Of a stretch of DNA of 22,320 nt, positions 2,803-18,087 are shown piece after piece. The notes beneath the pieces are model-generated. The model ran no database searches. It was not told the origin of the DNA and worked only from the letters and a program-made list of their open reading frames with translations. Position 1 is the first letter of the stretch. Every line of letters begins with the position of its first letter. The stretch comes from a virus: the UHGV virus genome UHGV-2170153. One strand, 5' to 3'. The translations under genes and the position numbers were made by a program.

Positions 2803-3147
2803 TTAGTCCTTGCGTAGCTCGCTGATTCTTCTGTAAGTCTCTGGTGCTTTGTTTCCGTGTATCTTCATTTCAGACTTCAACAGAGCAACGAGGGAATCCC
2901 ATTCGTTGAGGATGCCTTTGAATGTCGGAACGCGCTTTGCAACCTTGTCGAATGAATCTCTGATTTCTGGAATCTGCTCAACAAGTGCAACGCATCGTCG
3001 GAAATCGGCTGCGTCATGTGGAGCGCCGAAGTGATGACCATAGATATTCTTTTTCAGTCCACACGCGATTGAGGCAAGAGTTGCGCTACTGATGCCGACA
3101 TCGCCAGTCGATTGCCATTTCAAAATCTTCATAGCCAAATCTGACAT
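2803..3147 (-). CDS. Hypothetical phage protein (114 aa)
   Basis: ATG at 3147 with GGAGA 6 nt upstream; no family recognised by eye. Confidence 0.7.
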   Translation of the reverse strand: MSDLAMKILKWQSTGDVGISSATLASIACGLKKNIYGHHFGAPHDAADFRRCVALVEQIPEIRDSFDKVAKRVPTFKGILNEWDSLVALLKSEMKIHGNKAPETYRRISELRKD

Positions 3148-3219
3148 TTCTTGTCTCCATAAAACAAAACTCGCCGTAGCGAGTTCAGATAAAAGAAATC
3201 CCCGCGAGTGCGAGGATTG

Positions 3220-3504
3220 TTATTCATTGCCGATATTTACCTTTATCGCGAACACCTTTACCGGTTTATCGCCGAAGTGCAGATGTGTGATTGTCTTGAT
3301 TTCATACCCGTCATACGGGACGTCAATTCTACGGCTGGAATCGTCGCGCTTCGGATATCCCTTTGTGATAATCAGGCGGTCATATTCCCGGAACATAATT
3401 CGCTTATTCCAGTAGTCATTACACAGGCGATATTCTTCTGTTTTCTCCCCGCGAATCATGGCATCGAAGTATTCACCTTTGACGGCAAGTTGCAGGTTAG
3501 CCAC
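3220..3504 (-). CDS. Small phage protein, possibly ASCH/DUF3850-like (94 aa, GTG start)
   Basis: GTG at 3504 preceded by GGAGG (plus cctcc 3511..3515); overlaps upstream gene stop by 8 nt; N-terminus VANLQLAVKGEYFDAMIRGEKTEEYR resembles ASCH-type folds (weak, by eye). Confidence 0.6.
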   Translation of the reverse strand: MANLQLAVKGEYFDAMIRGEKTEEYRLCNDYWNKRIMFREYDRLIITKGYPKRDDSSRRIDVPYDGYEIKTITHLHFGDKPVKVFAIKVNIGNE

Positions 3505-4801
3505 GGTTAACCTCCTGCGGCGGTTCCGGTAGCGGCATCCAGTGAGTTGCTTGCTCAATACCATTACCCGGCTTAATCGTTGCATCTCCGCGCCGAAAGG
3601 TGCTTCCGGTATAGCGTGCGGAGCATATTAGCGGTTCAACCAGAGAGCTATCGAAATTCACCGAAATAAGCACGTTCTGGCCCTTTTCAGGCATTCGATC
3701 ACTACAGCTTATCCAACCATCCGGAGTTACCGGAGAGTTGCCCGACAGTCTACGCAAAACAGCCTTAACAGCCTCAATACGGTCATCATCGCAATTTTCC
3801 AGCGTATCTATGCGGTCGAGCATGATGATGGCGTTATCAATATCAGGATTGCCAGTCCACTCATTACCGCGATTGGATTCGGCAGCCTGGTTGCCAGATG
3901 CTGGTTGATTGTCGGCTTGGCTATAGCTAACAGCACGGCAGGCATCCTCTACGCCTTTAACTGCATCTGCGCAGTAGTTATAGCGATTGCATTCCACTAA
4001 CTTCTGCTTGAGATTTTCAATTGCTTGCGCGACATCAGCCTGTATTTCTGGAACTGGCGGAACGGCTGTTTGCTCTCGAACGTCATTAGTCGCTATCGGT
4101 TCTGCTGCCAACTGACTGGCATATTTGTTAATGGTAACGATAAGCTCTTGCTCAGCCTCATCCAGACAATCACCGATACCTCGCCTGTCACCGTCAAAAT
4201 CATCGAAATCGGCACGAATCTTGGCAACCTCCCGGATTGCGGACAACACCTCACTAGGAATTACCGGATAGTTGGTTGACGTTTCCGCGATTTCCCGAAA
4301 ATTATTGGTTGACGAATTCTTATTTTCCCGAAAGTTTCCGGACTGAAGCATGGCGGCGCGGCAGGCGTTAAGCGCGTTTTGCACGCGTTTAGCGTTCTGT
4401 ACTTCGTATTTAGGTGCGGCTGCCAATGCCCATAGCCAACCAATTTCATAGCTATCAGCTTTTGATAGAGCACATTCCATTTCCAGTGTTATTTTCTTAG
4501 GTACGAGTTGCCAATCATCTGGCACTACCGGCGCTGGCAGCTCGCGATACAGCGAGATTACACGACGCGGGTCCGCATATTTATCTGGCGGACACTGAAA
4601 TATCTCACCGAAACCATACTTCCTGACATCGCGCAGTTCCTCTTCATCAGTCCATGCCACCGGTTCTGCTTCCAGCGATGCCAGAGCAATCCGTGCCAGC
4701 TCTTCCGCTTCTTCTGCTGGCAGTACAACGTTGCTACCAGGTCCGTATGTTTCGCGCCACTGCTTGATTGTCAGCAGTCGCTCTTTGGTAATAGTGATCA
4801 T
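3497..4801 (-). CDS. Phage protein with C-terminal DUF551-like domain (434 aa)
   Basis: ATG at 4801 with AAGGAA upstream; ATGA overlap with upstream gene stop; C-terminus ...PDGWISCSDRMPEKGQNVLISVNF...ATHWMPLPEPP typical of DUF551 prophage proteins. Confidence 0.75.
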   Translation of the reverse strand: MITITKERLLTIKQWRETYGPGSNVVLPAEEAEELARIALASLEAEPVAWTDEEELRDVRKYGFGEIFQCPPDKYADPRRVISLYRELPAPVVPDDWQLVPKKITLEMECALSKADSYEIGWLWALAAAPKYEVQNAKRVQNALNACRAAMLQSGNFRENKNSSTNNFREIAETSTNYPVIPSEVLSAIREVAKIRADFDDFDGDRRGIGDCLDEAEQELIVTINKYASQLAAEPIATNDVREQTAVPPVPEIQADVAQAIENLKQKLVECNRYNYCADAVKGVEDACRAVSYSQADNQPASGNQAAESNRGNEWTGNPDIDNAIIMLDRIDTLENCDDDRIEAVKAVLRRLSGNSPVTPDGWISCSDRMPEKGQNVLISVNFDSSLVEPLICSARYTGSTFRRGDATIKPGNGIEQATHWMPLPEPPQEVNRG

Positions 4802-5313
4802 GCCGCGTTTCCTTCTTTCTTATTAACAATTACACCGTCATATATTTCATTAAGGTGCCCTCTCAACTCCATGCGCCTTAATGCAGATAACATGTAATCG
4901 CATTCAACCTGCTTATTTCCAGTAAATGGCTTATCGTCAGGATTACCCCAACAGCAATTACCCTTGGGCCACCCATGCACTTTCCGTACTCTTCCGTTAA
5001 CAACGTGAAGTAATCCCCAGCCAGGTGGTAAATCCTCAATTGAAATAATTCCCGGCTCACTAATAAAGAATCGCCAGTCGCCCATTCCAAGAGACGGATT
5101 TTTACGAAAACGCTTTTTTCTATCTGCCAACAAGTCAGCACGAGAACATTTCGCCTCTATCAGGCATGATGCTGAATTTCTGAATCCCATAGCATCTGGC
5201 TGTTCTCCGGTACTGGTTACAGCCATAAAGCGGTCATGAAAACAAACCTTGAACCCGTTGCGCTTAAGGAACTTGTACGCAATCTGACAGAGTTCGCGGT
5301 GTGTTAGCGCCAT
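4798..5313 (-). CDS. Hypothetical phage protein with possible PD-(D/E)xK-like nuclease motif (171 aa)
   Basis: ATG at 5313 with AAGGAGAG upstream (the track's upstream M at 5355 lacks an RBS); motif ...EQPDAMGF...CLIEAKCSRADL suggests D...E-x-K catalytic arrangement (inference by eye). Confidence 0.6.
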   Translation of the reverse strand: MALTHRELCQIAYKFLKRNGFKVCFHDRFMAVTSTGEQPDAMGFRNSASCLIEAKCSRADLLADRKKRFRKNPSLGMGDWRFFISEPGIISIEDLPPGWGLLHVVNGRVRKVHGWPKGNCCWGNPDDKPFTGNKQVECDYMLSALRRMELRGHLNEIYDGVIVNKKEGNAA

Positions 5314-5314
5314 A

Positions 5315-6022
5315 TCACTCTCCTTTGATGCGAATGCCAGTAGCGCGGATTGCATCGATGACTTCAGAAACTTTGTATGCCATTACCGTTTGGTAATCAT
5401 CGTGAAAATCTGTTCGATGAAGCATGCTGCTACGTTCCGGGAGCGTTATTTCCCGAGCATCCAGTTCCTTAACGCGTTCCTCCAGTTCGTAGACCCTGCA
5501 TTGTTCTCTATCATCAATCAGATATAACCCAAGACATTCGCTTTCTACCCAACCGCCAAAATCATGATCGTAACGCTCACATGAAAACTCACCGTCACCG
5601 TCCTTTGTTGGAATGGTGTAACTGTCTAATGGGCCACCGTACGTCGGCACATTTCCTAATGTCGGATGCTCAATCCACATAAAAAATGCACGTCCGGTTA
5701 TTGGGCAAATATCTGGCCGCCATTGGTTACGAACAGCGTTGGTTTCTGATAATTCTTCAGCGTGTTGTTTTACTTCCTCAAGCTCAACACGCAGCTTCCC
5801 TACCGTTAGCGCAATATCCTCGTTCTCCTGATCGCGGCTTTTGATGTATTGCAGGTTTCTTTCCCGTTCATCCAACAATGCCAGCGCGATATCTGGCGAA
5901 AAGTGCTTCATAAAATCGTTAAGCGCATTAATTCGCTGATCGAAAGGCATTACAGGTGCTTCACCAGCAATTTTTGTTTTTTCAGCGATTTCACGAAGCT
6001 TTTGATAATCAATCTTGCTCAC
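5315..6022 (-). CDS. Ead/Ea22-like family protein (235 aa, GTG start)
   Basis: GTG at 6022 with AAAGGAGG 6 nt upstream; N-terminal coiled-coil [17 protein letters not shown]...; resembles Ea22-like proteins of lambdoid b-region (memory, moderate). Confidence 0.65.
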
Positions 6023-6186
6023 TGGTTGCCTCCTTTGCGCCACATCGCATTCAGATATTTGTTTTGATTCACTGACGGAAAAGAATTTCTCTTAAGTAAT
6101 TCCTCTCTCGATGGCATTGGCTTTACGCGTTGGCGAATAATCATTTCTGCCGGAAGAATGCCGGGATTGTATGCAAGTCCTCTCAT
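6019..6186 (-). CDS. Small hypothetical protein (55 aa); alternative start at 6204
   Basis: ATG at 6186 with AGGAA 6 nt upstream; in operon context between coupled genes; short, so uncertain. Confidence 0.4.
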
Positions 6187-6196
6187 GGTAAATTCC

Positions 6197-6490
6197 TCAG
6201 TCATTACTGATAGCGCCATAGCGTGAGCGGTAATTACGCAGGCGCGGGTCAATTTCAGGGAAGTGGGTATATGTGGCTTTGCGGAATGGTCGGATTGATG
6301 TCTGGTAAATTCGCTCGCGTTCTTCTTTCTCTGCAAGCCATATACAATGGCGAAATTCCTTTTCCTCTTTCGTTTCCTGCGGTAGCGACATTATCCGGTC
6401 GTAGTTTTTTCCGAATTTATCCAGCACCTCCAATACGGAATTGCCGGAACAGCGGCGCGGGTCATCCGCACCATACAGAGGCGCTGGCAT
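6197..6490 (-). CDS. Hypothetical phage protein (97 aa)
   Basis: ATG at 6490 with AGGAG 6 nt upstream; basic C-terminal half. Confidence 0.65.
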
Positions 6491-6506
6491 GTTTTTCTCC
6501 TGTTGA

Positions 6507-7054
6507 TTATTTAGCTAACTTTTTCCAGATCGCTGAAACGTATTTGGCTTGGTGAATGGCATCATCAAGCGCGTTGTGGCGAGTTCCTTTGAATGGCATA
6601 TCTCGCTTAGGGTCGAATCCTATTGCCTTCCCAAGTTCGACGATTGTTCTTACGTCGCGGTCATTCCACCACTGCCACGGAACTGGCTGCCCTGTCAGCG
6701 AATAACTGTTGCGGAGAATAACGCAGTCAAATGATGCTCCATTCCCCCAAACCTGAACGAATTTGTGGTTAGCGTTCTTTATGATGAATTCAGATAACCA
6801 TGAAAGAGCCGTTGAGAGCTCTTGAGTGTTGCTGGTTAGCGATTTTCTGGCTTCTTCACTCTGTTCCATCCACCATAAAATCGTTGAAGCGTCAGGACGC
6901 GCCCGATATCGCATTGATGACTCAAGCGAGATATTTACCGAGAACTCTTCTCCTGTTTCTCCGGTATTCGGGTCAAAGAATACCGCCCAATAGAAATAAC
7001 TGGCGCGTATGGCCCGTTGCCCATTGTTTCAAGGTCAACCATCAAGTGATTCAT
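6507..7054 (-). pseudogene. DnaQ-like (DEDDh) 3'-5' exonuclease interrupted by a frameshift at a G3/C3 homopolymer (~6983..6990)
   Basis: N-terminal 39-aa frame from ATG 7054 (RBS AAGGA) encodes Exo I motif MNHLMVDLETMGNGPYAPVISIG then stops; the rest (AVFFDPNTGE...GNGASFDCVIL...HNALDDAIHQAKYV) continues in the +1 frame with no start codon; one extra G would fuse the frames into ~178 aa. Confidence 0.7.
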
Positions 7055-7062
7055 GTAAGTCC

Positions 7063-7578
7063 TTAAATTGCGTGAATAGCGTGACGAGGGAAGGGGAGAG
7101 TTACTGGTGCAAAGGGGATGTCGTCGTCAAAATCCATAGGTGGTTCGCTGTGATTTCCCTGCTGCTGAGGTTGCTGTCTTTGTTGCTGACCATTATTTCG
7201 CTGAGGTGAAGACTGTTCATTGCCTCCTTGCTTGCCACCAAGCATTTGCATGGTTCCACCAACGCCCACGATGACTTCGGTAGTGAACCGATCCTGTCCG
7301 CTTTGATCCTGCCATTTTCTTGTCCGCAATTTGCCTTCAAGATAAACCTCAGAGCCTTTTCGCAGATATTCGCTGGCAATTTCTGCCAGTTTCCCGCTCA
7401 TTACCACGCGGTGCCACTCCGTCTGCTCCTTTTGCTCTCCAGTTTGCTTATCACGCCATTGTTCTGACGTAGCAACGGTAAGGTTTGCAAATGCCGTTCC
7501 TGATGGTGAATATCTGATTTCTGGATCATGCCCAAGGCGACCAATAATGATCACCTTATTTACGCCTCTGCTTGCCAT
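7063..7578 (-). CDS. ssb: Single-stranded DNA-binding protein (171 aa) with 15-aa extension past the conserved DDDIPF tip
   Basis: [59 protein letters not shown]... OB-fold core closely resembles E. coli SSB; ...[11 protein letters not shown] then continues [15 protein letters not shown] before TAA. Confidence 0.9.
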
Positions 7579-8286
7579 TTATGCCGCCTGTTTTAGCTCG
7601 TTAACTCTGATGTTCATTACCTGAACGCATTTAGCCTGCGCCTCCTCGTTTCCAGCCATTAATTGCCAGTCACGCTGATAACGCTCGATGAGTTTTTTCT
7701 TGTCAGTTTCTGTTGACGCATAATCGCTGAAGTCTTTCAGGATTTGTTCGCAGTCAACCGATGGAGATTTCTGGTTGGTATTTTCTGGTGATGGTTTGTT
7801 ATCTGATGCTGGGATTGCCCATCCCGGCAGTGATGGAGGGAGCCAGTAAAATCCTGTTCCATCCTTCAGTTTTGCCCTGTGCCACCCCTGCTTTTTATCG
7901 AGAGATGTTTGTGCGAAACCTTCCTCAAGGTTATACAGATACCGACCGATTCCCCACTGAACGGCAGCGCGCTTCATTGCACCGGAACGACCACCTTTGA
8001 CGGCTTCTACCTGCGTGTTTTCAGCAGCATCCCATTTGGTTACCCATTCGGAATCAATCTTTATTGATATGCCGCATTCAACGCCGCCGTTGTTGGGAAT
8101 ATCGCGGTATTCATTGCGCCATCCTGCTTTGCCGCAAACATCGTCCAGGCGTTTCATGATTGCCCGGTTCGTGACATAAGCCAGCACCATAGCCCACACT
8201 TTGCCATCGCGTGTTTTACCGCTTTGCTGTATTCGCCATTCGATATCTTCAGGGCTGAATGGCTCATCGAATTTATTCAAATCCAT
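7579..8286 (-). CDS. Rad52/Rad22-family single-strand annealing protein (235 aa)
   Basis: ATG at 8286 with GAGGTGA RBS; N-terminal pattern FSPEDIEWRIQQSGKTRDGKVWAMVLAYVTNRAIMKRLDDVCGKAGWRNEY matches Rad52-type SSAP signature (memory); sits in the lambda bet position next to ssb and exonuclease. Confidence 0.7.
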   Translation of the reverse strand: MDLNKFDEPFSPEDIEWRIQQSGKTRDGKVWAMVLAYVTNRAIMKRLDDVCGKAGWRNEYRDIPNNGGVECGISIKIDSEWVTKWDAAENTQVEAVKGGRSGAMKRAAVQWGIGRYLYNLEEGFAQTSLDKKQGWHRAKLKDGTGFYWLPPSLPGWAIPASDNKPSPENTNQKSPSVDCEQILKDFSDYASTETDKKKLIERYQRDWQLMAGNEEAQAKCVQVMNIRVNELKQAA

Positions 8287-8385
8287 AATTCACCTCAGAA
8301 TGGACACGGCCCAAGGAAATAACGCTGATTTAATACTTCGACTCGGGACAAATTAAGGCATACCCGCATTCCTTCGCGGTCACCA

Positions 8386-8544
8386 TTATGGCGATACCAG
8401 AGAGCTTTCTGCGTGTACATGCGTCTCTGTAACTTGCTCTCCTTCACCGTGGTTGCAAGTGACATGAATATCTCCTTCGTTACCGATTAAATCTTTCATC
8501 TGACGAATGAATTCTTCGTCTGACCAGTTATCTGTAAAACTCAT
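8386..8544 (-). CDS. Small hypothetical protein (52 aa) in the gam position
   Basis: ATG at 8544 overlapping kil stop (ATGA); acidic sequence MSFTDNWSDEEFIRQMKDLIGNEGDIH...; no similarity to lambda Gam recognised. Confidence 0.4.
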   Translation of the reverse strand: MSFTDNWSDEEFIRQMKDLIGNEGDIHVTCNHGEGEQVTETHVHAESSLVSP

Positions 8545-8832: not shown

Positions 8833-9801
8833 TTAGTAGGTTATTTTTGTTGCGAATACTTCGCCTTTTACGATGGCTGTTATGATATTTTTAGCAACAT
8901 CTTCTGATGCGCCAACCTTGATAATGTCAGCAAGTATTTTGTTATTTACTTCTTTCCGGTGAGCTTTATCCTTTGCTCTACGCTCTTCTTCGTCCTTGAT
9001 TCTTTTTTCTTCTGCTATTCTGGCTTGCTCTTTTGCTTCAGCCTCGCGCCGGATTCGTTCAGCCTCCTCCTGTGCTTTTCGGCGTTCTGCTTCAATTGCC
9101 GCCTGCTTTTCTCTTTCAGCTCGTTCTGCTGCCTCTTTTGCTTCGCGCTGTGCTCGTTGCTCGGCTTCAATGCGTTCACGCTCTGCACGTTCCGCTGCGG
9201 CCTTAGCTTCTGCTTCTCGCCTTGCTGCTGCTTCAATTTCGGCTTTTGCCTTTGCTTCGGCTTCTGCTCTGGCTTTCTCTTCAGCTTCTCTTTTTAAGCG
9301 TTCTTCATGCTCTCGCTTTTCCTGCTCCGCTTTGAGTCTTGCCTCTTCTCTTTGGCGGTCAAATTCGCGATCCATCAAAATCGCTATTTCATGGTCAGAC
9401 TCAATTTGCTTTGCGAGAGCTTCAGCTGCTGCCTTAGCTTCTTCTTCGGCTTTAATCCGTGCCTGTTCCTCCTCATAATCAGTAAGAGGCTGGCGCGCCT
9501 TGGCTTTCAGTTCATCAAGGCGATCGCGCACTGTCTTGCGGTTAGCATCAATTAGCTTTGGAATTTCCTTCAGTTCAGCAACAAGGTCTTTGCCAAGACC
9601 ATCGAGATATGTTTTCGTCTGCGCAACTTTATACGCCAGAGAAGCGATCTCCTTTCTGCCCTTTGCCGTTGTGATATCAGGCACAAAGGACATAACTTCA
9701 CGTTCAACCTTTTGGAGAATTTCTTCAATCTGGTCGGCAGACTGAAATACAGTCATCGCATTTGCTTTTTCAATAACAACTAAATCTGTTACTTCACTCA
9801 T
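8833..9801 (-). CDS. Coiled-coil Ala/Glu/Lys/Arg-rich phage protein of unknown function (322 aa)
   Basis: ATG at 9801 with GGAGGA 4 nt upstream (the track's upstream M at 9897 lacks an RBS); long low-complexity central region EAEAKAKAEIEAAARREAEAKAAAERAERERIEAEQRAQREAKE... Confidence 0.75.
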   Translation of the reverse strand: MSEVTDLVVIEKANAMTVFQSADQIEEILQKVEREVMSFVPDITTAKGRKEIASLAYKVAQTKTYLDGLGKDLVAELKEIPKLIDANRKTVRDRLDELKAKARQPLTDYEEEQARIKAEEEAKAAAEALAKQIESDHEIAILMDREFDRQREEARLKAEQEKREHEERLKREAEEKARAEAEAKAKAEIEAAARREAEAKAAAERAERERIEAEQRAQREAKEAAERAEREKQAAIEAERRKAQEEAERIRREAEAKEQARIAEEKRIKDEEERRAKDKAHRKEVNNKILADIIKVGASEDVAKNIITAIVKGEVFATKITY

Positions 9802-10092
9802 ATATCCTCCATCAAAAAAAATCGCCCTCACACTGGAGGGAAAAGAAGATTTCCAATAATCAGAACAAGTCGGCTCCTGTTTAGTTACGAGCGACATTGC
9901 TCACATAGCAGACTCGTAAATCTGCTATAGGCGCTTATTCGCATCGCATGACAACATCAAATTTTTCGAGATTACTTTGTCGCAACAATCCTTTTTCTAC
10001 GCGGTCAGCTTTTCTATAATTATCAAATTAGAAATGTTTAATTACTTCTTTCGTTTCTCGCTCTATAACTTCAACAATGTATTTCTTATTCA

Positions 10093-11536: not shown

Positions 11537-12190
11537 TTAACTAAATGTCTCTTCAGGCCACTGGCTGGCGATAACTTTCCCTACTACGGAACAGCTATCA
11601 TTGCATGGGATCATTGGATATTGCGGGTTTAGTGGTTGTAGGAACACCTGACCGCTATCCCTGATCAGTTTCTTGAAGGTAAACTCGTCACCACCAAGTC
11701 TGGCTATGCAGAAATCACCTGGCTCAACAGCCTGCTCAGGGTCAACGAGAATTAACATCCCGTCAGGAAAGCTTGGCTTGGATCCTGTTGGTGCGGTCAT
11801 GGAATTACCTTCAACTTCAAGCCAAAACGCACAATCACTGGCTTTTTTGGTTGTGCTGACCCATCTCTCCGCATCGCCTTTGGTAAAGGTTCTAAGCTCA
11901 GGCGAGAACATCCCGGCCTGAACATGAGAAAAAACAGGGTACTCATATTGTTTTTTAACGGGGGCAGATGAGTATTCGCCAACAGGTGAAAATGTACCGT
12001 CGTGGTTGAATGAGACGTTATCAATACCAAGGTATTTAAACACCACACCAATCTCGTCAAGAGATGGATGACGAGATCCGCGCAACCAGTGACCAATTCC
12101 ACCCTGCGTCATACCAAGCTCTTCAGCTAACTTCTCTTGAGTTATGCCGAGCTCTTTCATTCTGGATCTAGCCAGTTCATACCATTTCAT
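11537..12190 (-). CDS. cI: CI repressor, chimeric: heterologous HTH N-terminal domain fused to lambda-type C-terminal dimerisation/autocleavage domain (218 aa)
   Basis: C-terminal ~120 aa nearly identical to lambda cI ([37 protein letters not shown]...[11 protein letters not shown]); N-terminal [36 protein letters not shown] is a different HTH; start chosen at 12190 (AAGGG 7 nt upstream; 12196 also possible). Confidence 0.9.
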
Positions 12191-12252
12191 TTTCATACCC
12201 TTATTATTACGCTCTGTACTAAAACCATCCATGCACAAGATGTATTTTTTGT

Positions 12253-12281
12253 TTGCATTCCAAAAGTACATATCGTATTAT
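12253..12281 (+). promoter_or_regulatory. pR promoter candidate (-35 TTGCAT, 17-bp spacer, -10 TATTAT) with overlapping operator-like repeats
   Basis: TTGCAT 12253..12258 and TATTAT 12276..12281, ~20 nt upstream of the cro RBS. Confidence 0.6.
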
Positions 12282-16723: not shown

Positions 16724-17438
16724 GTTAATAAATGGCAATGCCATCAAAATGACAAGCATTGAAATCGCTGAGTTGGTGGGTAAGCGTCATGACAATGTGA
16801 AACGTACCATCGAAACGCTGGCTAAAAATGGTGTTATCCGGCTTCCTCAAATTGAGGTTTCCGAAAGAATCAATAACTTAGGGTTCAATGTTCAGTACGA
16901 GCATTACGTCTTCGAGGGCGAACAAGGTAAGCGAGACAGTATTGTCGTTGTAGCCCAGTTGTCGCCGGAATTCACGGCTCGCCTTGTTGACCGTTGGCGA
17001 GAGCTTGAAGAAGCTGCGGTTAATATCCCAAAAACGCTACCAGAAGCGTTGCGCCTTGCTGCTGACCTTGCTGAGCAGAAAATGCAACTGGAAAACCAGC
17101 TCGCAATTGCCGCACCTAAAGTTGAGTTTGCCGATCGCGTTGGCGAGGCCAGCGGAATTTTGATTGGAAACTTTGCAAAGGTTGTTGGAATTGGTCCAAA
17201 CAAACTGTTTGCGTGGATGCGCGATCACAAAATCCTTATTGCTTCAGGTTCCCGGCGCAATGTGCCAATGCAGGAATATATGGATCGCGGCTATTTCACA
17301 GTGAAAGAAACAGCGTTCAACACAAATCACGGAATACAGATATCGTTCACCACAAAAATCACCGGGCGTGGTCAACAGTGGCTGACCAGAAGGCTGCTCT
17401 ATAGCGGAATGCTGAAAGTAACAGGGGAGGCTGCTTAA
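16716..17438 (+). CDS. Rha-family phage regulatory protein with KilA-C antirepressor-type C-terminal domain (240 aa)
   Basis: N-terminal TSIEIAELVGKRHDNVKRTIETL (Rha-like); C-terminal KLFAWMRDHKILIASGSRRNVPMQEYMDRGYFTVKE (Ant/KilAC-like); GAGGAAG RBS. Confidence 0.8.
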   Translation: MNELINGNAIKMTSIEIAELVGKRHDNVKRTIETLAKNGVIRLPQIEVSERINNLGFNVQYEHYVFEGEQGKRDSIVVVAQLSPEFTARLVDRWRELEEAAVNIPKTLPEALRLAADLAEQKMQLENQLAIAAPKVEFADRVGEASGILIGNFAKVVGIGPNKLFAWMRDHKILIASGSRRNVPMQEYMDRGYFTVKETAFNTNHGIQISFTTKITGRGQQWLTRRLLYSGMLKVTGEAA

Positions 17439-17728
17439 TGGCTAAACTACGCAAAGAAGCGCGCGGCAGAGAATGCCAGGTACGTATTTACGGCGTATGC
17501 AATGGCAACCCTGAAACTACAGTTCTGGCACATTACCGGATGGCTGGAATTTGCGGAACGGGAATGAAGCCTGACGACCTGATCGGAGCATGGGCTTGTA
17601 GCGCGTGTCACGATGAAATCGACCGACGCACCCATAAACTCGACAACAAAGACGCCAGACTTTACCACCTGGAAGGCGTGATCAGGACGCAGGCGATACT
17701 GCTGAAGGAGGGGAAGATTAAGCCATGA
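17438..17728 (+). CDS. Cys-rich nin-region protein, DUF1364-like (96 aa)
   Basis: MAKLRKEARGRECQVRIYGVCNGNPETTVLAHYRMAGICGTGMKPDDLIGAWACSACHDEID...; family call from memory, moderate. Confidence 0.7.
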   Translation: MAKLRKEARGRECQVRIYGVCNGNPETTVLAHYRMAGICGTGMKPDDLIGAWACSACHDEIDRRTHKLDNKDARLYHLEGVIRTQAILLKEGKIKP

Positions 17729-18087
17729 ACGAATATCAGTTTGTGCTTCCATACCCGCCGTCGGTGAACACCTACTGGCGAAGACGGGGAAGCCAATACT
17801 ACATCAGCGATAAAGGCCAGAAATACCGAAAAGACGTTCAGCAAATCATCCGCCAACTTAAGTTAGACATTTTCACCAAATCACGACTCCGCATCAAAGT
17901 CATCGCAGACGTTCCAGACTCCCGCCGCCGCGACCTCGACAACATCCTGAAAGGTTTACTCGACTCCCTTATCCACGCCGGATTTGCGGAAGACGACGAG
18001 CAATTCGATGACATTCGCGTAATTCGTGGTGTGAAAGTACCAGGCGGACGGCTTGGAATAAAAATCACCGAACTGGAGAACGCATGA
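17725..18087 (+). CDS. rusA: Holliday-junction resolvase RusA (120 aa)
   Basis: LPYPPSVNTYWRRRG...DSRRRDLDNILKGLLDSLIHAGFAEDDEQFDDIRVIRGVKVPGGRLGIKITE matches the RusA family. Confidence 0.9.
   Translation: MNEYQFVLPYPPSVNTYWRRRGSQYYISDKGQKYRKDVQQIIRQLKLDIFTKSRLRIKVIADVPDSRRRDLDNILKGLLDSLIHAGFAEDDEQFDDIRVIRGVKVPGGRLGIKITELENA

Follow-up and report, generated by a model that had tools for sequence, protein, structure and literature searches.

The closest described systems are the MmcB-like proteins (PF06319, formerly DUF1052), which are reported mostly from alpha-proteobacteria (PMC3424549) and are placed in the PD-(D/E)xK superfamily (PMC1189080; PMC3424549), with a link between DUF1052 and the archaeal Holliday-junction resolvases (PMC1189080). 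The MmcB protein of Caulobacter has been described as an SOS-regulated PD-(D/E)XK endonuclease that gives resistance to mitomycin C and cisplatin, and possibly acts together with translesion polymerases (PMC9578287). As an ORF without a name, the gene analysed here has long been on record (P7 Upf89.0), and the libraries and literature searched did not assign it to the MmcB-like branch of PD-(D/E)xK nucleases. Literature searches on Upf89.0, its PHROG families and MmcB-like prophage proteins found nothing, and no activity was reported for members of the phage family in the literature searched. A modelling paper on exo-xis proteins was without the nuclease-related terms searched.

The window (the whole stretch of 22,320 nucleotides analysed, virus genome UHGV-2170153) carries a minus-strand gene at 4798-5313 that encodes a protein of 171 aa, and this gene is real (Table 1). 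The sequence AAGGAG at 5325-5320 precedes its ATG, and one base separates the ATG from the TGA of the upstream gene (5317-5315), a gap from which translational coupling to the upstream gene may be deduced. At its other end, an ATGA (4801-4798) holds both the stop of the gene and the ATG of the downstream gene, and the gene is therefore taken to be translationally coupled to both neighbours. An alternative start at the in-frame ATG at 5355, which would give 185 aa, was disfavoured, as most relatives begin at MALTH. Two overlapping ORFs, 4508-4897 (plus strand) and 4878-5141 (minus strand), were taken to be spurious, since conservation follows the frame of the 171-aa protein. A run of six A in codons 65-67 raised the suspicion of frequent frameshifts, and the sole 'frameshifted' copy checked (E. 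coli A11) was intact. The peptide strings quoted in the preliminary description are present, and belong to the minus strand, which that description had left unstated: in the minus-strand translation PDAMGF is residues 39-44, LIEAKCSR is residues 51-58 and GNCCWGNPDDKPFTGNKQVECDY (GNCCWG...ECDY) is residues 118-140.

Table 1. Positions in the window of the 171-aa gene, its parts and the neighbouring genes.
Feature	Position	Strand	Basis or remark
MmcB-like PD-(D/E)xK protein CDS, 171 aa (= P7 Upf89.0)	4798..5313	minus	ORF list and translation; 99% identity to P7 upf89.0 CDS
Start ATG of 171-aa gene	5313-5311	minus	
Stop TGA of 171-aa gene	4800-4798	minus	
Ribosome-binding site AAGGAGAG	5318..5325	minus	Direct sequence reading; six bases 5' of ATG, within the end of the upstream Ead/Ea22-like gene
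Putative catalytic core E37-Q-P-D40 ... E53-A-K55, codons 37-55	5149..5205	minus	E37, D40, E53 and K55 invariant (68/68); strands 2 and 3
Signature helix S-R-A-D-L-L-A-D-R-K-K-R-F-R, codons 57-70	5104..5145	minus	D60, D64, K67 and R70 invariant; aligns to 3DNX and MmcB profile
Variable loop GWPKGNCCWGNPDDKPFTGN, codons 114-133	4915..4974	minus	Least conserved stretch; Cys not conserved
C-terminal helix, codons 134-150	4864..4914	minus	Near-invariant E137 and S-A-L-R-R147; helix in both models; aligns with MmcB AARRL helix
Upstream neighbour, Ead/Ea22-like	5315..6043	minus	Pfam PF13935, E 7.9e-18; P7 Upf88.3 in same position
Downstream neighbour, 434 aa, C-terminal DUF551	3497..4801	minus	Pfam PF04448, E 1.2e-21; same operon
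Abc2 anti-RecBCD	6197-6490		Leftward operon
Rv2179c-like 3'-5' exonuclease	6507-6914		Leftward operon
SSB	7063-7578		Leftward operon
Rad52-like recombinase	7579-8286		Leftward operon
LexA-like S24 repressor	11537-12271		
RusA	17725-18087		

The window is a lambdoid E. coli prophage adjoining ybhC, and over bases 1-2722 it shows 98.9% identity to the ybhC, int and xis genes of E. coli A11. Going left from the immunity region, the order is an N-like antiterminator, several ORFs without a Pfam match, the Rad52-like recombinase, SSB, the exonuclease, Abc2, the Ead/Ea22-like gene, the 171-aa gene, the DUF551 protein, xis and int. The right arm holds the S24-type repressor, O, a DnaC-like loader, NinB, NinX, an antirepressor, YbcO, RusA and Q. 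The Ead/Ea22-like gene is the usual neighbour in lambdoid phages and in P7, and is not a functional partner. A promoter and terminator scan of 3000-7000 returned three promoter-like sites (mean of 5.6 in shuffled sequence), none of them near the 171-aa gene on its coding strand, and terminator-like sites on the minus strand only near 3167-3218, which is consistent with a single long leftward operon. As part of an early prophage operon under a LexA-like S24 repressor, the gene would be expected to track SOS induction only indirectly.

The DNA of the gene was found in 137 phage records at 95-99% identity, mostly Stx-converting phages and also P7; the majority of Stx-converting phages have it, as do P7-type phage-plasmids. 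Among 5426 complete E. coli genomes, 928 (17%) carry it, and of the 1297 matching places 248 are on plasmids. It is annotated as hypothetical throughout, as were ten distant relatives looked up, and in P7 as upf89.0, 'unknown protein function'; 5 of its 516 bases are different in the P7 copy, and one amino acid is changed. The segment in common with E. coli A11 (window 4663-5331) closely brackets the gene, as do the segments in common with P7 (window 4662-5887 and 3937-4369). Such tight bracketing shows cassette-like exchange between lambdoid and P1-type phages.

A first protein search returned 324 relatives at E ≤ 0.001, with 56-99% identity among the 120 listed, and a profile of those relatives reached 3251 clusters at 50% identity (E ≤ 1e-3; 2435 at E ≤ 1e-10). 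Conservation was read from an alignment of 68 diverse members with identity down to 35%. Thirteen positions were invariant (68/68): E37, D40, E53, K55, D60, D64, K67, R70, G78, R81, W99, G100 and L101; H5, P39, S57, R58, F61, P96, E137, R146 and R147 were almost invariant, and position 27 was D or E in every sequence. The D...E-x-K spacing that had been pointed out from the letters alone is thus beyond chance, D40, E53 and K55 being kept throughout, as is E37. The 171-aa protein matched two PHROGs without a function strongly (phrog_9263, E 5e-123; phrog_631, E 2e-94) and phrog_5429, 'DNA repair protein', weakly; phrog_5429 was matched by 65 of the 68 relatives. Pfam and NCBIfam scans of the 171-aa protein gave no match even at E ≤ 1, a PDB sequence search with the single protein gave nothing, and NCBIfam applied to the 68 relatives gave only two weak matches to YraN.

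Structure prediction and profile searches, two of the checks that the preliminary description had proposed, both supported its reading of the protein as a possible PD-(D/E)xK nuclease. AlphaFold gave a pLDDT of 87.7 and a pTM of 0.81 with 35 sequences, and 94.0 and 0.88 with 68 sequences (all five models 93-94). The topology common to both runs was helix 5-18, strands 23-26, 41-45 and 48-54, helix 58-64/65 and strand 80-85, followed by a hairpin (100-113), a loop and helix 134-150. Both predicted models therefore contain the alpha-beta-beta-beta-alpha-beta core that defines the superfamily, of the restriction-endonuclease-like kind. The motif residues lie where the superfamily has them, D40 immediately before strand 2 (41-45), with E53-x-K55 closing strand 3 (48-54).

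With Foldseek, no PDB structure was matched at E ≤ 0.001, and 3dnx was absent from the top 50; the weak top matches were all PD-(D/E)xK nuclease domains (R2 endonuclease, AF1548, Hjc, BspD6I, Bax1, XisH and NucS). When structures were compared by Z, AF2093, SdaI, Can2, AF1548, PaqCI, NgoMIV, FokI, Hjc, NucS and VRR-NUC were found among the lower-ranked matches, and unrelated Rossmann-like cobalamin-binding domains appeared at comparably low Z, as is usual for background. Foldseek against predicted viral structures (BFVD) matched phage proteins named 'MmcB-like DNA repair protein' (E 7e-8 to 7e-4).

Homology to the MmcB-like family was significant in profile comparisons. The profile of the 68 sequences matched 3dnx_A over residues 14-129 (E 4e-6); a profile of close relatives only reached 3dnx non-significantly (E 0.24), so that significance required the broader alignment. 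A PF06319 set was collected with the SPO1766 segment of the 3dnx alignment as the query, and 27 proteins were aligned. With hhalign, the 68-member phage family matched these 27 proteins with 97.8% probability (E 1.2e-12) over 122 columns and residues 11-151, in an alignment that takes in the E-x-K-S-x-R-x-D-F-x-x-D-x-K signature and the C-terminal ALRR/AARRL helix. By this result and the profile match to 3dnx_A, the homology extends over the full domain. Scanned singly, 19 of the 68 relatives matched PF06319 weakly (best E 2.9e-4); one tested relative, P0253, exceeded the gathering cut-off (23.1 bits vs 22), which the 171-aa protein did not reach, having no Pfam match at E ≤ 1. By these comparisons the phage family is a divergent sister of PF06319, and one that the Pfam model misses in the case of the 171-aa protein and most of the relatives scanned. 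That the phage protein has a PD-(D/E)xK fold and is homologous to MmcB is very likely; that it is catalytically active is probable.

Among 80 viral loci that carry a relative, no conserved partner gene was found. Neighbours on the same strand, classed by sequence, were most often NinB-like (17 loci), NinG-like (14) and Ead/Ea22-like (13), and DnaB-like, phosphatase-like and RusA-like ORFs were each next to fewer than 10 of the 80. A neighbour cluster present at 21 loci was rejected, as it is an alternative-frame ORF that overlaps the gene itself. In the contigs examined, the relatives stand amid phage genes: a Providencia prophage has the order Dam, ORF, Lar-like, relative, RusA and Q, another contig has the relative a few genes upstream of RusA, and a large phage has it amid small early ORFs. 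Relatives are occasionally fused to an Ead/Ea22 N-terminus, a dATP/dGTP pyrophosphohydrolase or a TniB-like ATPase, and these fusions may be gene-calling read-throughs.

The reading that we prefer, with a probability of roughly 60%, is that the gene encodes a small single-domain, metal-dependent PD-(D/E)xK DNA endonuclease that belongs to a large phage-borne sister group of the MmcB-like family. We infer its nuclease activity, its metal, its substrate and its biological role. The gene would be transcribed with the delayed-early leftward operon of the lambdoid prophage, downstream of the recombination genes. In the protein, D40 and E53 would hold Mg2+, probably aided by E37 and by the acidic residue at position 27, with K55 as the last member of the site; DNA would be held by basic residues that are invariant or nearly so (K67, R70, R81, R146 and R147). 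As substrate, damaged or branched DNA that arises from phage replication and recombination after induction is the most likely, and not a specific sequence. A role specifically in repair or on branched DNA is put forward only tentatively, as possible and somewhat doubtful. The context in its favour consists of the operon with the Rad52-like recombinase, SSB, the exonuclease and Abc2, and of the positions beside NinB, NinG, RusA and Dam in other phages. Counting against the preferred reading are the missing Pfam and NCBIfam matches of the 171-aa protein, the weak Foldseek result against the PDB, the L in place of E37 in SPO1766 and the RusA and YbcO already present in this phage; in addition, no conserved neighbour indicates a particular pathway.

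The preliminary description had also presented the C-terminal half as unusually rich in Cys and Trp, and as a possible metal-binding or recognition module. The first part was overstated with respect to Cys, as there are 3 Cys in the C-terminal half and 4 in the N-terminal half; Trp number 3 and 1, respectively. A separate module built on these residues could be suggested by C120, C121, C138, W115 and W122, which fall within 25 residues, and by the close enterobacterial relatives, in which W122 is invariant and C138 nearly so. Across the 68 sequences, however, C9 was kept in 22, C50 in 14, C120 in 6, C121 in fewer than C120, and C138 in 9, and W122 was kept in 24. No Cys was conserved, and the three or four conserved Cys/His ligands of a zinc module were therefore not found. 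Even among the close enterobacterial relatives the CC pair is variable, giving way to AL, CS, WE, TD and others. Residues 114-133, where neither model predicts a strand or a long helix, coincide with an 8-column gap in the MmcB profile and form a variable loop within the same single domain. The elements of the C-terminal half that are conserved (P96, W99-G-L, E137 and S-A-L-R-R147) all align with MmcB. As the C-terminal half aligns with that of MmcB, including the ALRR helix, the protein is one domain without a separate metal-binding module, and conservation effectively refutes such a module, the probability left to it being negligible.

A nuclease of conflict and not of repair, directed against host or competitor DNA, against superinfecting phages or against a host defence system, is an unlikely alternative; the preliminary description had suggested anti-defence or exclusion. 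The gene belongs to the mosaic accessory 'ea' region in lambdoid phages and to the C1-controlled hea operon in P7, is exchanged as a small cassette in the segments in common with A11 and P7 (4663-5331 and 4662-5887), is patchy among complete E. coli genomes (17%) and adjoins the Lar-like restriction-alleviation gene in the Providencia prophage; beyond location in an accessory region and mobility, no result favours this reading. However, no PADLOC defence model was matched, no immunity or partner gene is conserved alongside, the nearest relatives of characterised function work in repair and junction processing and are not toxins, and the usual neighbours are recombination and replication accessory genes. 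Still less likely is a dimeric Holliday-junction resolvase of the Hjc type that serves the phage recombination module. It would suit a gene downstream of a Rad52-like recombinase and SSB and the tie of DUF1052 to archaeal resolvases (PMC1189080), and PF01870 gave weak matches in 39 of the 68 relatives (best E 1.3e-4), as did the family profile with Hjc chains (E 0.11-0.5); but all of these matches are sub-threshold and cover the catalytic core only (about 45 residues), the PF01870 model did not match the 171-aa protein, and the two relatives whose bit scores were seen had 16.9 and 17.7 vs a cut-off of 21.1. With RusA and the putative nuclease YbcO already in the phage, a plain junction-resolving role would be redundant, and RusA stands in the loci of two relatives as well. 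Inactive PD-(D/E)xK homologues are known (PMC3424549), and the protein could be one that binds DNA through a retained nuclease fold without catalysis, for instance a regulator of lysis and lysogeny like other products of the exo-xis region; yet the invariance of E37, D40, E53 and K55 in 68 sequences with identity down to 35% is unexpected for an inactivated fold, and makes this very unlikely.

Agents that damage DNA, mitomycin C among them, induce lambdoid and Stx prophages. Given such induction, the excised phage genome carries the same crosslinks or lesions, and an early MmcB-like endonuclease might incise or unhook them and so permit replication; this form of crosslink tolerance is a long shot. 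If true, it would account for the association of the gene with recombination and nin-region genes across thousands of phage lineages. If the preferred endonuclease acts on damaged or branched DNA once the prophage is induced, the yield of Shiga-toxin phages under DNA-damaging antibiotics could be influenced by it; otherwise, the 171-aa protein would be one more small phage nuclease. The MmcB-like placement gives a testable annotation to about 3000 related clusters, and Pfam and NCBIfam do not cover the 171-aa protein.

Compared with known systems, the same gene is found as P7 Upf89.0 (AAQ07564.1) and in phrog_9263 and phrog_631, entries without a function or a link to MmcB or PD-(D/E)xK. The archaeal Hjc proteins (PF01870; 1HH1, 1OB8 and 2EO0) have the same minimal core, with the catalytic D on the second strand and E-x-K on the third, and match weakly in sequence and structure, but their C-terminal half is unlike that of the phage protein. 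The MmcB-like proteins of PF06319 (3DNX, which is SPO1766 of Ruegeria pomeroyi, and MmcB of Caulobacter crescentus) are, like the phage protein, single domains of about 150-170 aa, and have in common with it the D...E-x-K-S-S/x-R-x-D-F-x-x-D-x-K signature, in which the counterpart of the signature helix is K-S-S-R-A-D-F-Q-A-D-A-K, and the C-terminal A-(L/A)-R-R-L helix. The phage protein differs from them in the additional invariant E37, which is not kept in SPO1766 (L at that position), in the invariant G-M-G-x-x-R and W-G-L, and in a longer variable loop (114-133), and the phage group is borne by phages and prophages in early operons.

The gene for the MmcB-like PD-(D/E)xK protein, together with parts of both of its neighbours, was 97% identical between the lambdoid prophage of the window and the hea operon of P7, and sequence comparison delimited the blocks common to both (see table). 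P7 is a P1-type phage, and the window prophage is lambdoid. Between E. coli A11 and the window, the common block around the gene was limited to window positions 4663-5331. The gene seems to have been transferred between unrelated phage types as a small cassette.

The A11 copy, labelled in RefSeq as a 179-base 'frameshifted' pseudogene, translated into an intact protein of 171 aa with one substitution; the pseudogene call is apparently an annotation artefact in a protein family that lacks a model. Truncated forms of the protein were numerous in databases (one cluster of 111-aa forms, for instance, had 645 members), and could result from slippage at an A6 run within the R65-K66-K67 codons of the conserved signature helix. 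Among relatives from other contigs, one was fused at its C-terminus to a dATP/dGTP pyrophosphohydrolase (P0226), one at its N-terminus to a TniB-like ATPase (P0134), and one carried an Ead/Ea22-like N-terminus (P0090). These fusions may be real or else read-through gene calls. Directly 3' of the copy in E. coli A11 lay a gene for a dATP/dGTP pyrophosphohydrolase.

Features of the window and of the loci compared with it
Feature	Position	Strand	Remarks
Host gene ybhC	1-1284
Lambda-type integrase	1419-2489
Excisionase	2467-2775
121-aa ORF	3220-3585		Listed overlap with end of DUF551 gene, 89 bases
Blocks common with P7	3937-4369 and 4662-5887		P7 locus (L002) 4427-6284
A6 run	5114-5119		Gene bases 195-200
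Abc2, P22-type anti-RecBCD protein	6197-6490	-
Rv2179c-like 3'-5' exonuclease	6507-6914	-
SSB	7063-7578	-
Rad52/22-family recombinase	7579-8286	-
354-aa ORF	8833-9897	-	phrog_1376, phrog_21365
YbcO putative nuclease	17438-17728		nin region
RusA junction resolvase	17725-18087		nin region, together with YbcO gene
A11 copy of the gene	A11 locus (L001) 8001-8516		NZ_CP028763.1 3222548-3223063

Because ybhC is followed by the integrase and excisionase genes, the start of the window is chromosomal DNA of E. coli, and ybhC directly adjoins the integrated prophage. The phrog_625 (function unknown) match of the 121-aa ORF did not begin until residue 28; translation therefore probably initiates downstream of the listed start, and the real overlap with the DUF551 gene is probably much smaller than listed. 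The 354-aa ORF had no Pfam match, and its PHROG matches were limited to two families without an assigned function; it was the largest unexplained gene of the early-left operon.

With YbcO and RusA encoded in the nin region, the number of small putative DNA nucleases in the phage rises to three or more. A compact recombination module of four genes occupied positions 6197-8286 (minus strand), and its composition (Rad52/22, SSB, exonuclease and Abc2) was unlike the lambda Red set.
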